NCBI GenBank assembly: GCA_036507075.1
Contig: DASXQR010000088.1
Coordinates: 2,253 to 66,252 of the forward strand
Origin: Acidobacteriota bacterium
GTDB taxonomy: Bacteria; Acidobacteriota; UBA6911; JACQSX01
Length of the DNA: 64,000 bases
Reading direction: 5' to 3'
Program-made: the position numbers and the translations under genes
Notes under the pieces: generated by a model
What the model was told of the DNA's origin: nothing
The model's input: the letters and a program-made list of their open reading frames with translations, nothing else
The model's database searches: none
Shown here: one piece after another, positions 22,454-60,021 of the stretch
How the letters are laid out: each line of letters opens with the position of its first letter
Position numbering within the stretch: position 1 is the stretch's first letter

Positions 22454-22515
22454 GGGACGCGGCACTGAATGCGTGCTGGAGGGACGCGGTACTGAATGCA
22501 TGCTGGAGGGACGCG
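22454..22515. repeat. 27-nt tandem repeat (~2.3 copies); its core recurs inverted at 26338-26359
   Basis: GGGACGCG at 22454, 22481 and 22508; GAGGGACGCGGTACTGAATGCA has an exact inverted copy at 26338. Confidence 0.85.
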
Positions 22516-54538: not shown

Positions 54539-54676
54539 CAAAAGATTGAACCGCCAAGAACGCCAAGAACGCGAAGCCACTGATTGACCGAGTTTGGTTG
54601 TCAGTGGCTGAGCTCCAATACAGGGGCCAGTTAAAAGCTTGGCGCTCTTTGCGTTCTTGGCGGTTCAATCTTTTTT
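54539..54676. mobile_element. 9-mer-arm hairpin element with GCCCA direct repeats
   Basis: AAAAGATTGAACCGCCAAGAACGC ... GCGTTCTTGGCGGTTCAATCTTTT; GCCCA at 54534-54538 and 54677-54681. Confidence 0.8.
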
Positions 54677-54680
54677 GCCC

Positions 54681-56231
54681 ATGGATCTCAAAGACAAACT
54701 CGAAGAGCTGGAGAAGCGAAATCGCGCCGCCGAACTGGGCGGGGGGCAGGCGCGGGTGGAGCGCCAGCACTCGGCGGGCAAGCTTACAGCGCGCGAGCGG
54801 GTCGAGCTGCTGCTGGACGAAGGCTCCTTCAATGAAGTCGACAAGTTTGTCACTCACCGCTGCAATGATTTCGGGATGGACCAGCAGAGAATCCCGGGCG
54901 ACGGCGTGGTCACCGGCTATGGCAAGATCGACGGACGGCTGATGTTCGTCTTTGCCCAGGATTTTACCGTCTTTGGCGGGAGCCTGAGCGAAACCTATGC
55001 CCAGAAGATCTGCAAGATCATGGATCTCGCCCTCAGGATGGGCGCTCCGGTGATCGGTTTGAATGATTCAGGCGGGGCGCGCATTCAGGAAGGCGTCGTC
55101 AGTCTGGGCGGCTACGCCGATATTTTCCTGCGCAATACGCTGGCTTCGGGTGTGGTGCCGCAGATTTCCGCAATCATGGGGCCGTGCGCCGGCGGGGCCG
55201 TTTACAGTCCGGCCATCACCGACTTCATTTTCATGGTCCGCGATACCAGCTACATGTTCATCACCGGCCCGGATGTGATCAAGGCGGTGACCCACGAAAC
55301 GGTCACCAAGGACGAGCTGGGTGGAGCTTCCACGCACAACGAAACCAGCGGCGTGGCGCACTTTGCGGCGGCCGACGATGCTTCCTGCCTGGCGATGATT
55401 CGCGAGCTGGTCTCCTACCTTCCGCTGAACAACAGGGAAGATCCGCCGCGCTACCAAGCCGGCGATGCCGCGGATCGGGAAGATGCTTCGCTCGATCAGC
55501 TCATCCCGGCCGATCCCAATCTTCCGTACGACATCAAAGACCTGATTCGCCCGGTGGTGGACGAGCATCATTTCTTTGAAGTCCAGGAAGGGTTCGCGCA
55601 AAACATGGTGGTTGGACTGGCGCGGCTGAACGGACGCTCGGTGGGAGTGGTGGCAAACCAGCCGGCCGTGCTCGCGGGAACACTGGACATCAACGCATCG
55701 GTCAAGGCGGCGCGTTTTGTGCGCTTCTGCGATGCGTTCAACATCCCGCTGGTCGTGTTTGAAGATGTTCCCGGTTTTCTGCCCGGAGTGAATCAGGAGT
55801 ACGGAGGCATTATCCGCCATGGGGCCAAGCTGCTTTACGCTTTTGCGGAGGCCACCGTTCCCAAGATCACAGTGATTGCGCGCAAGGCTTACGGCGGAGC
55901 CTACTGCGTGATGGCGTCAAAGCACATCCGCACCGACGTGAATTACGCCTTCCCCACGGCGGAAATCGCCGTGATGGGCCCCGAGGGCGCCGTCAGCATC
56001 CTGCACCGCGCCGAGCTGGAGCGCGCCACGGATCAGGAGGCCTTCCGGCGCGGCAAGATCGAAGAGTTCCGCAACAAATTCGCCTCGCCTTACATCGCCA
56101 GCGAACGGGGCTATATCGACGAAGTAATCCTGCCGCGCCACACCCGCCCCAGGCTGATCCAGGCCCTTGAAATGGCCTCCAACAAAAGAGACAAGAACCC
56201 GCCCAGGAAGCATGGCAATATTCCGCTGTAG
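54681..56231 (+). CDS. pccB: Acyl-CoA (propionyl-CoA) carboxylase beta subunit
   Basis: [46 protein letters not shown]. Confidence 0.95.
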
Positions 56232-56992
56232 AATGTTCGTGGTCTGTTGTCCGTTGTCAGTTGTCCGTGGTCAATGGCTATCGAGTTCATTCCCTTCAGG
56301 CGTCAAGTTTTGCCAGTTTTTGTTGTGCCGATTGAGCGCAGGTAAGCATTCAGTCTGGGGGCCAATTCGTCTATTATTGGCTTCAGTTGCTGAACTTGAG
56401 CTTCGGAAAGCAATTGGCGTCGAAACACCCTCCTTAACCAGTGCTTTGTCTCATTAAGCGAACCGCGGGCGGTCCGAACGAACCGCCGGTTGTCCGGAAA
56501 GCTGCCGCGCCCTGTTCCCTCGGCAATGTTTGATCCGATGCTGTCAGCAGCCGACACAAGTTGCTTGCCCACCGTAAACCGAGCAAAGGTCTGCCATTGA
56601 AAGACGATGTTCCAGATTCGATCCGCCAGGTCTTCGGCGAGCCGATAAACATCAAGCTGCTCGAAATTCGTTCTCGTCGTCATTCATCGCCTCCTGCGTA
56701 CACAACCGCCCGAATCGGAAATTTGCGAAATTATTTTTGCCGGAATACGATTTAGCCATGATTTGGGTCCGTTGTCAGTGGTCCGTTGTCAGTGGATCGT
56801 CGTCAGTGGTCCGTTGTCAGTGGTCACGTTGTTGTTGCCCATTGTTAGCGGTGAGGATGTTACCTCGCGTGCAAACGCCGTCTTGGCTCACCTCTGCTTT
56901 GAGTTGTGAGAGGAGGGTCCCTCGAAATTTGAAGGTTCTATCCAACTGGACCACTGACCACGGACCACTGACCACGGACCACTGACAACATT
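56232..56992. repeat. GTC(C/A)GT(T/G) heptamer arrays bracketing the four-helix-bundle gene
   Basis: Arrays at 56235-56276 and 56767-56822 (same sense) and 56952-56986 (inverted). Confidence 0.9.
56303..56683 (-). CDS. Four helix bundle protein (23S rRNA-IVP / Avd-like family)
   Basis: FEQLDVY, QLVSAADSIGSNIAEG.GR, ARGSLNET; SD AGGAGG. Confidence 0.93.
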   Translation of the reverse strand: MTTRTNFEQLDVYRLAEDLADRIWNIVFQWQTFARFTVGKQLVSAADSIGSNIAEGTGRGSFPDNRRFVRTARGSLNETKHWLRRVFRRQLLSEAQVQQLKPIIDELAPRLNAYLRSIGTTKTGKT

Positions 56993-56993
56993 T

Positions 56994-58469
56994 ATGTTTA
57001 AAAAGATCCTGGTTGCCAATCGGGGCGAAATCGCCGTCAGAATCCTGCGGGCTTGCCGTGAGATGAAAATCACGGGCGTGGCGGTCTATTCGGACGTGGA
57101 TGAGACGGCGTTGCATGTTCGCATGGCTGATGAGGCGTATCGCATCGGCGCGGCTCCCGCCGGCGAGAGTTACCTGCGCGCGGATCGAATCATCGAAACG
57201 GCGCGGCGCTGCGGCGCCGAGGCGATCCATCCCGGCTACGGATTCCTTTCCGAAAACGCGGAATTTGCCGGGCAGTGCCGCTCGGCCGGTATCACCTTCA
57301 TCGGCCCGCCGCCGGAGGCAATGCGAAAGCTGGGCGAAAAGATTCCGGCGCTGGAAATAGCGCGCGGCGCCGGCGTTCCCACTATTCCCGGATCAAACGG
57401 AGCCGTTCGGGAACTGACCGCCGCGCTCAAGATCGCGCTGGAAATCGGATATCCGGTGATGCTTAAAGCCTCGGGAGGCGGCGGAGGCAAAGGCATGCGC
57501 CTGGTGGGTTCCGAAGAAGAGTTGCGCCGGGTCTGGGATGTCACGCAGAACGAAGCGGCATCGTCGTTCGGCAATCCTGTTGTTTTTCTGGAAAAGTACC
57601 TTGTCCATCCGCGCCACATCGAGATCCAGGTGCTGGCCGATCATCACGGCAATGTCCTCTACTTCCCCGAGCGCGAATGCTCGCTGCAGCGCCGCCACCA
57701 GAAAATCGTGGAGGAGTCCCCGTCGCCGGCCGTCGATCCGGCGCTGCGAAAGAAGATGGGAGAAGCCGCGGCGCTTCTGGCCTCAACGGCGGGTTATCAA
57801 AACGCCGGCACGGTGGAATTTCTGATGGATGCGGACGGGAAGTTTTTCTTTCTTGAAATGAACACGCGCCTGCAGGTGGAGCACCCGGTCACGGAAATGG
57901 TGACCGGGGTCGATCTTGTTCATTTACAAATCCGCATCGCGGCAGGCGAGCAGCTCCTCCTGGGCCAATCCGGGATCGATGCGCGCGGCCATGCCGTCGA
58001 GTGCCGCATCTACGCCGAGGACCCCGGCAATCAGTTCATGCCTTCGCCCGGGACAATCGCATCGTTGGAAGAGCCGGCGGGCCCCGGGATACGAAACGAC
58101 ACGGGAATATATCCGGGCGCGGAAATCTCGCTCTATTACGATCCGCTGATTTCCAAGCTGATTGCGCATGCGGGCACCCGACAGGAAGCGCTGGCGCGGG
58201 CGGTTCGGGCGCTGCGGGAGTACCGGATTTCAGGGATTCGAACATCGATCCCGTTTCTGAGCCGGCTGCTGCAGGATCCCCGCGTCGCGAGTGGCCGGCT
58301 GCACACCGGACTGGTGGCGGAAATCCTGGAATCCTCCGATGGGACCGAAGACGAAGGATGGCGTGAAGCGCTCATTGCCGCCGCCCTGATGTACCAGTCG
58401 CCGCAGAAACGCCGCCTCGCTCCCGAGCAAAGTTCCTGGCGGCAGGGTTTCTGGGAACACATGCCGTGA
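56994..58469 (+). CDS. accC: Biotin carboxylase subunit
   Basis: ILVANRGEIA, HPGYGFLSEN, GGGGKGMR, EMNTRLQVEHPVTE. Confidence 0.95.
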   Translation: MFKKILVANRGEIAVRILRACREMKITGVAVYSDVDETALHVRMADEAYRIGAAPAGESYLRADRIIETARRCGAEAIHPGYGFLSENAEFAGQCRSAGITFIGPPPEAMRKLGEKIPALEIARGAGVPTIPGSNGAVRELTAALKIALEIGYPVMLKASGGGGGKGMRLVGSEEELRRVWDVTQNEAASSFGNPVVFLEKYLVHPRHIEIQVLADHHGNVLYFPERECSLQRRHQKIVEESPSPAVDPALRKKMGEAAALLASTAGYQNAGTVEFLMDADGKFFFLEMNTRLQVEHPVTEMVTGVDLVHLQIRIAAGEQLLLGQSGIDARGHAVECRIYAEDPGNQFMPSPGTIASLEEPAGPGIRNDTGIYPGAEISLYYDPLISKLIAHAGTRQEALARAVRALREYRISGIRTSIPFLSRLLQDPRVASGRLHTGLVAEILESSDGTEDEGWREALIAAALMYQSPQKRRLAPEQSSWRQGFWEHMP

Positions 58470-58975
58470 AATTTGAAGCGCGTCTGGAGAACGGCCAAAG
58501 GCATAGCGTCGAGGTGAAGCGCCAGGGCGGCCAACTTCAGGTGTTGATCGACGGCGATCCGGTGAGCGTTCGCTTCCGCAGGGTAAACGACAATCAGTGC
58601 CTGCTCGAACTGGGCGGCAAGATCGTCGATGCGGTCATCCACCGCAATGGCGTCGACCAGGAGGTGCTGATCGCGGGCATCACGCACCGGCTGCGGCTGA
58701 TCGATCCCAGGCTGCAGCCTGACCCCGGAGAAGTTTCAACGGGCGGACCGCTCGCCGTGAAGGCCCAGATGCCGGGAAGAGTGGTGCGGGTTCTGAAGGC
58801 AACGGGCGACAATGTGGAAAAAAACACCGCCGTGGTGGTGATAGAAGCGATGAAGATGCAAAACGACATCCGCGCCCCCCGCGCCGGCGTCATCGCAACG
58901 CTTGAGGTGAAAGAAGGAGAATCCGTGTCGGCGGGGCAACTGCTGTTTGAAATAGCCTCCGAACCGCGCGCGTAA
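58466..58975 (+). CDS. Biotin carboxyl carrier protein
   Basis: EAMKMQN biotinylation motif; GTGA overlap with accC. Confidence 0.93.
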   Translation: MKFEARLENGQRHSVEVKRQGGQLQVLIDGDPVSVRFRRVNDNQCLLELGGKIVDAVIHRNGVDQEVLIAGITHRLRLIDPRLQPDPGEVSTGGPLAVKAQMPGRVVRVLKATGDNVEKNTAVVVIEAMKMQNDIRAPRAGVIATLEVKEGESVSAGQLLFEIASEPRA

Positions 58976-59696: not shown

Positions 59697-60021
59697 TAGC
59701 AAGTTAGCAACTTCTTGTTTTTTAGCAGGGTTTTTAAAACCGTTCACGTCAAGGACCACGTCTCACGTTCACGAGCACGAGCATGTCAACGTCCACGCGG
59801 ACGATCACGTCGACGGTTACGTCTAAAGTCTTGCACGGTGCGCCTAACTAAGCTTCAGAGGAATTAGAGCTGAATGTTGTCGAAATCATCGATCTCGGAG
59901 GTGGACGTTGGCGTTCTCGTAATCGCAGGACGTGGAGGTTGACGTGATCGTGCTCGTAGACGTGAGGCGTGGTCGTTGACGTATTCGTGGACGGTTTTTT
60001 GGTTGCGGCCCGTGGCCGGGC
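59697..60021 (-). mobile_element. Fixed-frame element with inverted hexamer arrays as core
   Basis: Minus strand: GGCCGCAACCAAA-(ACGnnn)n-spacer-(nnnCGT)n-CTGCTAAAAAACAAGAAGTTGCTAAC. Confidence 0.75.

Follow-up and report, generated by a model that had tools for sequence, protein, structure and literature searches.

The window analysed here is a stretch of 64,000 nucleotides (nt) from an Acidobacteriota bacterium (GenBank assembly GCA_036507075.1, contig DASXQR010000088.1), in which two carboxylase subunit genes, a pccB-like carboxyltransferase gene and an accC-like biotin carboxylase gene, are separated by an insert of 762 nt (765 nt counting the pccB stop codon). The insert holds a gene of the PF05635 four-helix-bundle family, read against the operon, and three tandem arrays of short units, the outermost of which are inverted with respect to one another (Table 1). 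From the build of this insert, the recurrence of that build across the family and the state of the same junction in relatives, we consider it probable, at roughly 60%, that it represents a four-helix-bundle cassette of the type of the intervening sequences (IVS) of ribosomal RNA (rRNA), in which a PF05635 gene lies between complementary arms, placed in a once-tight intercistronic junction.

Table 1. Layout of the pccB–accC junction in the window (positions of the 64,000-nt stretch)
Feature	Position	Strand	Basis or remark
pccB-like carboxyltransferase	54639..56231	+	PF01039, E 2.2e-202; stop TAG at 56229-56231
AATGTT, outermost half of the inverted pair AATGTT/AACATT	56232..56237		read directly
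Left array, GTCCGTT/GTCAGTT-type 7/14-nt units	56234..56277	+	Tandem Repeats Finder (TRF) and complementarity arm 56239-56277
PF05635 four-helix-bundle gene, 126 residues, intact	56303..56683	-	open reading frame (ORF) and Pfam
AGGAGG Shine-Dalgarno (SD) sequence, 6 nt before the PF05635 ATG	56690..56695	-	read directly
Promoter-like motif: A-tract, TTTCGCA, spacer, GGTTGTGT	56700..56738	-	44.7 bits, matrix from this genome's sites
Middle array, same sense as left array	56766..56832	+	TRF; predicted to pair with the right arm
115-nt spacer, loop of the local hairpin	56833..56947		without recognised content
Right, inverted array, GGACCACTGACCAC units	56943..56989	+	TRF 56948-56986 and complementarity arms
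AACATT, counterpart of AATGTT; followed by T and the accC ATG	56987..56992		read directly
accC-like biotin carboxylase	56994..58469	+	PF00289, PF02786, PF02785
Biotin carboxyl carrier protein, overlapping the accC stop	58466..58975	+	PF00364

The original prediction for this locus, which was made from the letters alone, had described the same succession of TAG, AATGTT, three arrays, antisense gene and AACATT-T-ATG, and each of these elements lies where it had been placed. TRF describes the left array (56234-56273) as 5.6 copies of period 7 (score 43) or 2.9 copies of period 14 (score 59), the middle array as 4.7 copies of period 14 (score 104) and the right array as 2.8 copies of period 14 with 100% matches (score 78). 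Seen in the orientation of the PF05635 gene, the left array forms the downstream arm and the right array the upstream arm, and the cassette reads as arm, 115 nt, extra array, leader, ORF, arm; a second locus in the same genome (C225) has a similar layout by eye. The insert is not an assembly artefact, since it recurs with 0-1 differences in independent contigs of two soil-metagenome runs; one example, a 981-nt X1 record, equals 55966-56946 with 0 differences. Reads from four soil-metagenome DNA runs that skip ~680-698 nt were considered as an excised or empty form and rejected: their shorter side measures only 21-28 nt, both sides lie inside the arrays and are separated by other letters, and they are read as other array hairpins. 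A consensus scan for sigma-70 promoters returned none and a terminator scan a single, chance-level terminator-like site. Rfam found no rRNA in 56100-57100, and a sub-threshold match to a miRNA family (28.6 bits vs 104) was taken as a hairpin artefact.

PF05635 is the sole Pfam match of the 126-residue product (E 3.9e-28; 98.2 bits with a cut-off of 33.8; profile positions 1-105 of 106). The protein retains the conserved S..NIAEG core of the family, together with all columns that are invariant in a 16-sequence alignment that includes it (L10, Q41, S48, N52, A54, E55, A72, S75 and E78). A predicted model has four helices at a predicted local distance difference test (pLDDT) score of 91.6. Its best structural matches, by template modelling (TM) score, are 2GSC (XCC0516; TM 0.81-0.94) and 2RLD (BT_0352; TM 0.65-0.87), entries of 5 chains each, followed by the Avd chains of the Bordetella phage diversity-generating retroelement (DGR) (8UB7, 4DWL and 8UBE; TM 0.70-0.82, probability 1.00). 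The window protein is accordingly predicted to fold as a four-helix bundle like the solved PF05635 members, and the structural relation to DGR Avd that the original prediction had named is recovered by the model. The likeness to Avd ends with the fold, however: identity is only 11-13%, and a sequence search for solved structures found 2GSC and 2RLD only, leaving Avd unmatched. No reverse transcriptase stands beside the window gene, whose neighbouring ORFs are carboxylase subunits, and a repeat search for DGR template and variable repeats in 56100-57100 found none, only the arrays and short two-copy matches. An Avd-like, nucleic-acid-binding role for the window protein is a guess.

The combination of a PF05635 gene and short-period arrays recurs throughout the family. 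In the window's own genome, 7/7 PF05635 loci (four genes intact, three broken or partial) have arrays within 350 nt on both sides, in 5/7 cases inverted and matching, and each locus uses a different unit. Among 1648 control ORFs of 80-200 residues the corresponding figures were 9.4% and 0.85%, values that are approximate because the ORF calls are crude. PF05635 matches were found in 92 of 121 genomes sampled from the class, and when one locus was taken from each of 30 same-class genomes (a set that includes L046 from genome G015), all 30 had at least one array, 23 had arrays on both sides and 21 had inverted-matching arrays, with an array density of 3.3/kb near the gene vs 0.57/kb beyond 600 nt. 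The association persisted in four array-poor genomes with 8-13 PF05635 copies each, in which 28 of 29 loci had at least one array, 24 had arrays on both sides and 23 had complementary flanks. It extended, moreover, across phyla. An alignment-based scan of species-representative genomes, whose best matches include Blastocatellia, Pyrinomonadaceae and Chloracidobacterium records, yielded 80 loci from Cyanobacteria, Planctomycetota, Acidobacteriota, Chloroflexota, Bacteroidota, Verrucomicrobiota, Gemmatimonadota, Proteobacteria and Actinomycetota; 78 of these had at least one array, 67 had arrays on both sides and 54 had inverted-matching arrays (2.86/kb near the gene vs 0.81/kb far from it). A gene with inverted short-period arrays is therefore the normal state of the PF05635 family in many phyla. 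The original prediction had made itself dependent in advance on such an association, and it was found in the genome, in the class and across phyla alike.

To score the arms, we aligned the left flank locally with the reverse complement of the right flank at the 101 loci with enough flank. Within a locus the median arm complementarity was 43; flanks taken from different loci gave 18 and distal control segments 19 (with 27.7 as the 99th percentile of these controls), and 81 of the 101 loci scored at least 28. At these 81 stem loci the median arm measures 36 nt and the median loop 439 nt. The median distance is 44 nt from the end of the upstream arm to the PF05635 ATG, and 7 nt from the stop to the start of the downstream arm; in 42/81 the stop lies within that arm or at most 10 nt away. 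The arms thus differ in sequence between loci, yet stay mutually complementary. PF05635 ORFs often run into the downstream array (L030, L032, L034, L037, L048 and others), and in such cases the stop codon and the last residues are encoded by repeat units, giving C-termini such as LTTDH, LTANH and LTAES.

The best flanking array at 132 loci had a period of 7 in 89 cases, 6 (or 12) in 19, 8 in 10, 9 in 4 and another value in 4, while 6 loci had none. On a FastTree phylogeny of the protein the period changes 18 times, compared with 32-37 times in 300 label shuffles, a degree of clustering that is overstated because kin share labels; cassettes of period 6, 7 and 8 coexist within single genomes. 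Array period, then, follows the PF05635 protein lineage. The closest relatives of the window protein lie at other loci. In genome G006, a 67%-identical ortholog, oriented in sense, has a helicase-C gene on one side and an unnamed ORF on the other, and both of its arms have changed in step, to the GTCATTG/GTCCTTG type. In genome G003, a 70%-identical fragment between a kinase gene and a tRNA-synthetase gene shares the leader motif of the window gene and, in both arms, the unit of the window locus.

Comparison of the pccB–accC junction itself in 17 relatives in which the two genes are adjacent (L018 and L023, with no adjacent accC, were left out; distances include the stop codon) showed that the insert is absent there, as the original prediction would have it. 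The junction measures 4-29 nt in eight genomes from other families of the class (L015, L016, L019, L021, L024, L025, L026 and L027) and 51-69 nt in four, one of which (L020) has a single array. It measures 88 nt in L014, where it consists only of an inverted heptamer hairpin in which an 11-nt loop separates four TTTTCAG-type units from five ACTGAAA-type units, 129 nt in L022 (genome G015), which has a plain inverted repeat, and 192, 260 and 305 nt in three same-family genomes, two of which have nested inverted arrays without a gene. The junction in the window, at 765 nt, has the full cassette and, compared with these relatives, the only intact PF05635 gene at this position. The inner arms at the G003 junction consist of the window's GTCCGTT/GTCAGTT unit, 20/20 nt identical, around a loop of ~100 nt; no PF05635 gene remnants were found in the G003 and G001 junctions, where only the arrays match. 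The 260-nt junction of G002 gave a weak, sub-threshold match to the PF05635 C-terminus (L013:1306-1494 (-); 16.9 bits, E 0.008) that runs sense to the operon, opposite to the window gene, and that is suggestive only of a remnant. Judged by these sequences, the ancestral junction was tight, because relatives' junctions are short (4-29 nt in 8/17), and the 762 nt are an insertion into it. At this junction, arrays have arisen repeatedly and with different units. The original prediction had also remarked that accC has no recognisable SD, which by eye is true; as a consequence of the insert it does not hold, because same-family relatives without the gene also have none.

Insertion into tight operon spacers is likewise common in the family, and at the 80 cross-phylum loci the cassette is very frequently flanked by a pair of cistrons from a single conserved operon. 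Such pairs include accB/accC in three Xanthomonadales records (L161 and L189, with accB recognised by eye, and L165, with accB recognised by Pfam and accC not called on the plus strand), nuoC/nuoD (L162, L175), carA/carB (L168), gltB/gltD-like genes (L164), gyrB/gyrA (L155), genes for ATP-grasp and CoA-ligase subunits (L123), metH/metF (L170, L180), genes for the electron-transfer flavoprotein alpha subunit and an acyl-CoA dehydrogenase (L194; the downstream gene only in L179), two methylmalonyl-CoA mutase genes (L199), genes for an ATP-binding cassette (ABC) ATPase and a binding protein in Nostoc (L134, L139, L149), and genes for AcrB and an outer-membrane factor (L157). With neighbours called as crude ORFs at the 101 loci, both run with the PF05635 gene in 55 cases and both against it in 19, the rest being mixed. 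At the 43 sense-oriented stem loci, a median of 2 nt separates the upstream stop from the beginning of the upstream arm (within 15 nt in 34/43), and the next start codon in the downstream frame follows the downstream arm after a median of 8 nt (within 30 nt in 37/43), a distance that is soft because choosing the first start codon beyond the arm biases it towards short values. Since the arms abut the neighbouring stop and start codons, they are the ends of the inserted DNA, and since they run from stop to start family-wide, the outer arrays of the window locus are the arms typical of the family. The exact wedging between stop and start that the original prediction had pointed out is in this way a trait of the family, for which insertion into spacers only a few nt long is the simplest reason. 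One Gemmataceae record (L183) has a tandem pair of PF05635 genes followed by a Fic/DOC gene.

Elements of comparable architecture are known from 23S rRNA genes, where IVS carrying an S23p gene are reported for Leptospira as well as for Coxiella. As set out in the available part of the Coxiella burnetii study, a 428-nt element in helix 45 of 23S rRNA has a terminal inverted-repeat stem with the S23p ORF in its loop and is cleaved by RNase III in the stem, and its 5′ region has two or three tandem GACAGAT heptamers, depending on the strain, with the cut at the first repeat (PMC4990558). The likeness takes in the PF05635 ORF in the loop of a terminal inverted-repeat stem, the heptamers at the 5′ end, the total size (~430-760 nt) and the position inside a transcribed unit (PMC4990558). 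Terminal inverted repeats that enclose the ORF are present in the window as they are at the 81 stem loci. In contrast to the 23S IVS, the window cassette lies between two protein genes, with PF01039 and biotin carboxylase genes as its neighbours, rather than in helix 9, 25 or 45 of 23S rRNA; its gene runs antisense to the host transcript, with a promoter-like motif and an SD of its own; and it has a third array. In a search for an IVS in the genome's own 23S rRNA, the only copy found is partial (G000:C209:11950-13836, after which the contig ends) and has a short plain hairpin at a helix-45-like position; in the same copy, 879 nt correspond to 742 model positions (1302-2043), so that it may contain an insertion of ~137 nt. 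Because the Coxiella architecture recurs here in a different host RNA, we class the window element as one that may work like an IVS, although it lacks the location in rRNA by which an IVS is defined. The original prediction's view of it as IVS-like is upheld by its build, by the tie of its family to arrays and by its insertion in the junction.

By analogy with the rRNA IVS, the arms would form a long duplex on the operon transcript, and host RNase III would cut it. If the duplex is cut, the insert would be set apart from the host RNA and the pccB and accC messages would be separated, both genes staying expressed from the pieces. At the window locus, the right arm is complementary to the middle array over 47 nt at 87% and over 42 nt at 90%, and to the left array over 39 nt at 85%; a 786-nt stretch folds with z = -3.4, and 0/20 shuffles fold as well. 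The extra same-sense array would here compete for the right arm, and the predicted structure of the operon strand is a hairpin of ~47 bp, the end of which lies 4 nt upstream of the accC ATG. The PF05635 gene would be read from the opposite strand, from the promoter-like motif that it shares with DNA-uptake and recombination genes.

Several observations weigh against this reading, above all where it is taken purely at the level of RNA. A look-up for RNA runs containing the locus returned none. Arms are often very unequal (22 vs 152 nt at C199), a pattern more like that of DNA slippage than like that of a tuned RNA stem. Mismatches compatible with G·U pairing have no bias between the antisense and the gene-sense strand (95 vs 103 in 79 stems), so there is no sign of strand-specific RNA selection. 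Arrays also occupy the pccB–accC junction in relatives that have no gene there, and can therefore exist without one. At the window locus, the right arm prefers the middle array (-78.4 vs -54.1 kcal/mol with the left array), and the minimum free energy (MFE) fold agrees; the antisense orientation of the window gene is, moreover, the minority arrangement (19/101 vs 55 sense). Finally, the control and neighbour ORFs were crude longest-ORF calls, made with no gene finder.

The G·U symmetry and the unequal arms lend some weight to a DNA-level element, the least doubtful of the alternatives although we still think it unlikely. On that account, the arms would be hairpin or cruciform ends in single-stranded DNA, like the ends of IS200/IS605 elements or repetitive extragenic palindromic (REP) sequences, with RNA folding as a by-product; the cassette would, with the same likelihood, move or persist via single-stranded DNA, for instance during transformation. 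Variable copy number, as in the 2 or 3 heptamers of Coxiella strains in the part of that study available (PMC4990558), would fit as well, as would the occurrence of the same cassette lineage at three different loci in three genomes. The leader motif points in the same direction. Its consensus is an A-tract, TTTCGCAGATTT, N8 and GGnCAGTTATGT, and a matrix built from 25 sites found 57 genome sites at ≥22 bits, the window site and 56 others, many of which have an ORF start 0-7 nt after the motif, often with no leader. In a Pfam run on 40 of the 49 motif-downstream ORFs of at least 70 residues, the genes included those for SSB, RecA, DprA, a ComEA-like HHH_3 protein, ComEC (Competence and Lactamase_B domains), a ComM-like Mg-chelatase ATPase, a phosphoribosyltransferase-fold protein, a GspH/N-methyl pilin-like protein, RadC, RecQ, RecG and an ERCC4 nuclease, together with 11 IS200-like Y1_Tnp and 3 PDDEXK_3 (GxxExxY-type) genes. 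By gene content, the set looks like a competence-type or DNA-repair regulon.

The motif is present at five PF05635 loci, and within the motif set complementary-repeat flanks were found at 5/5 PF05635, 6/7 testable Y1_Tnp and 2/3 PDDEXK_3 genes. By contrast, recA, ssb, dprA and other core genes of uptake and recombination are not flanked in this way and score 16-26, with comEA the exception at 35. Most of the Y1_Tnp and PDDEXK_3 genes with the motif (e.g. C223:19286-19771, C122:12873-13319, C201:35628-36095) have strong inverted repeats, with stem scores of 40-189. What speaks against an element of DNA is that PF05635 has no known catalytic motif and that no transposase adjoins the cassettes. 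There is also no sign of recent transposition, because the paralogs in the genome share no DNA-level identity and differ in their units; between the window protein and the C225 copy, identity is 32%. In addition, the experimental data for this architecture, as far as the accessible part of the source goes, exist only at the level of RNA (PMC4990558).

A somewhat less likely possibility is a cognate trans-acting system in which each PF05635 lineage would recognise arrays of its own period or unit, and in which, at equally modest odds, the gene-less array hairpins would be targets or offspring of the protein. Such a system would resemble the REP-associated tyrosine transposases (RAYT), including REP doublets forming hairpins (REPIN), in which a Y1 (IS200-like) transposase gene is flanked by inverted repeats and the repeats are a fixed palindrome. 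Here, too, a single gene has inverted flanking repeats that are also dispersed as gene-less hairpins, and several lineages per genome each have their own repeat. The differences are that the window gene belongs to PF05635 and is not a Y1 transposase, that its repeats are no fixed palindrome but consist of 6-9-nt units in tandem arrays, and that the genome has separate Y1_Tnp genes with their own inverted repeats. In favour of a cognate system, period clusters on the protein tree, and the units that flank PF05635 genes are dispersed elsewhere in the genome (AACGGAC in 112 arrays, AATGACC in 74, AACCCGT in 55, ACGTCC in 50, AGGAGGC in 38 and ACTCTCCC in 25). G003, moreover, has an empty hairpin of the window's unit at pccB–accC and a related gene elsewhere, and the Xanthomonadales arms consist of GGGAAT-type units, a type found at 186 sites in X. 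campestris according to the part of that study available (PMC4692102).

Array density, however, did not track PF05635 copy number in 60-kb samples from 20 genomes (Spearman 0.23, p 0.34), a result that also speaks against the original suggestion that the protein may spread the empty arrays. The most abundant unit families, furthermore, have no PF05635 gene in the assembly (AATGCGG, and families of period 8-9), and insertion into existing arrays by abundance would give the same overlap of units. The commonest family, AATGCGG, comprises 372 arrays and 142 inverted pairs (e.g. C10:76789-76933, C110:17971-18077); about half of the loops of these pairs measure 41-46 nt, their sequences look poorly conserved, and no PF05635 gene was found with this unit. 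A 9-nt family, AACGCCAAG, forms 47 inverted pairs with loops of ~90-115 nt (e.g. C17:26712-26889, C17:28177-28320), some of which are clearly related to one another, and it looks like a miniature inverted-repeat transposable element (MITE) or a small RNA.

Less likely again is the strict form of the original prediction, in which the outer arrays would pair uncut, loop out ~760 nt and bring the pccB stop beside the accC start for coupled translation. The 39-nt outer arms, 85% complementary and with AATGTT/AACATT beyond them, would permit this, and family-wide the arms abut stop and start codons; but such abutment is expected anyway from insertion into a spacer of a few nt, and the middle array lies nearer to the right arm and out-competes the left array in both energy and MFE fold, so that the loop-out is not the predicted structure at this locus.

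Arrays as such are frequent in this genome, where TRF gave 6562 rows that merged into 4155 short arrays of periods 6-10, mostly 7, 8 or 9 (1367 of period 7), and ~40% of crude intergenic regions contain one. Adjacent inverted pairs number 808, ~690 of them with a loop below 150 nt, and most lie in intergenic gaps with no gene between the arms, as in the window at 26521-26562/26764-26793, 29840-29898/29962-29998, 50251-50298/50346-50392 and 61393-61428/61465-61495. The window also has tandem repeats of longer period that are unrelated to the heptamer arrays (22454-22515 and 59757-59815; 27 nt x 2.3 and 24 nt x 2.4). That the arrays are a generic intergenic repeat class with the gene merely among them, as this abundance and the arrays of gene-less pccB–accC junctions might suggest, is very improbable given their presence at every PF05635 locus of the genome as compared with fewer than one in ten controls, the persistence of the association in array-poor genomes and across phyla, and the complementarity of arms within but not between loci.

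Heptameric simple-sequence repeats (SSR) have been recorded in several bacterial groups, the cyanobacterial repeats of the short tandemly repeated repetitive (STRR) type being one such family. Published families, in the parts of the papers available, include GGGAATC in Xanthomonas and GGGGA(C/T)T in Nostoc (PMC4692102) and TAACTGA in Beggiatoaceae (PMC4679880), and consist of 7-nt units repeated in tandem between genes, with hundreds of sites in a genome and frequent convergent inverted pairs (PMC4692102, PMC4679880). The arrays of the present genome resemble these in being tandem 7-nt intergenic units at many sites and in inverted pairs, and differ from them in that they form arms around a PF05635 gene. 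The available text of the two heptamer papers, their supplementary site lists left out, has 0 occurrences of S23, four-helix or IVS protein terms (PMC4692102, PMC4679880). In a literature search that left subscription journals outside its scope, only the Coxiella paper was found to link heptamers with an S23p ORF, at one rRNA site (PMC4990558), and judging by titles and abstracts, none of the papers naming PF05635 or its family names appears to describe arrays as a feature of the family. As far as these searches reach, the family-wide package of gene and arms and its preference for operon spacers are not in print.

To our knowledge, the PF05635 family is large and widespread, is represented by two crystal structures and is not known to have a function outside DGRs. 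Heptamer repeat families, for their part, have been described repeatedly, and we know of no explanation for them. A link between the two, along with the extension of the rRNA-IVS architecture to operons of protein genes, offers a concrete hypothesis for both puzzles. As a tentative generalisation, which we put forward as possible rather than probable, PF05635 cassettes may be pan-bacterial, selfish or semi-domesticated "operon intervening sequences", of which the rRNA IVS would be only the best-known landing site; heptamer families such as the cyanobacterial STRR type, the Xanthomonas GGGAATC repeats and the arrays of this genome would be their arms and gene-less derivatives, with each protein lineage matched to arrays of its own period, and in the lineage of this genome the genes would be switched on together with the machinery of DNA uptake and recombination, which would point to an action on single-stranded nucleic acid. 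Acetyl-CoA carboxylase, complex I, gyrase and carbamoyl-phosphate synthase are among the products of the operons affected. Annotation is concerned as well, because operons are split and assemblies broken by such inserts, which can pass for ordinary intergenic regions.

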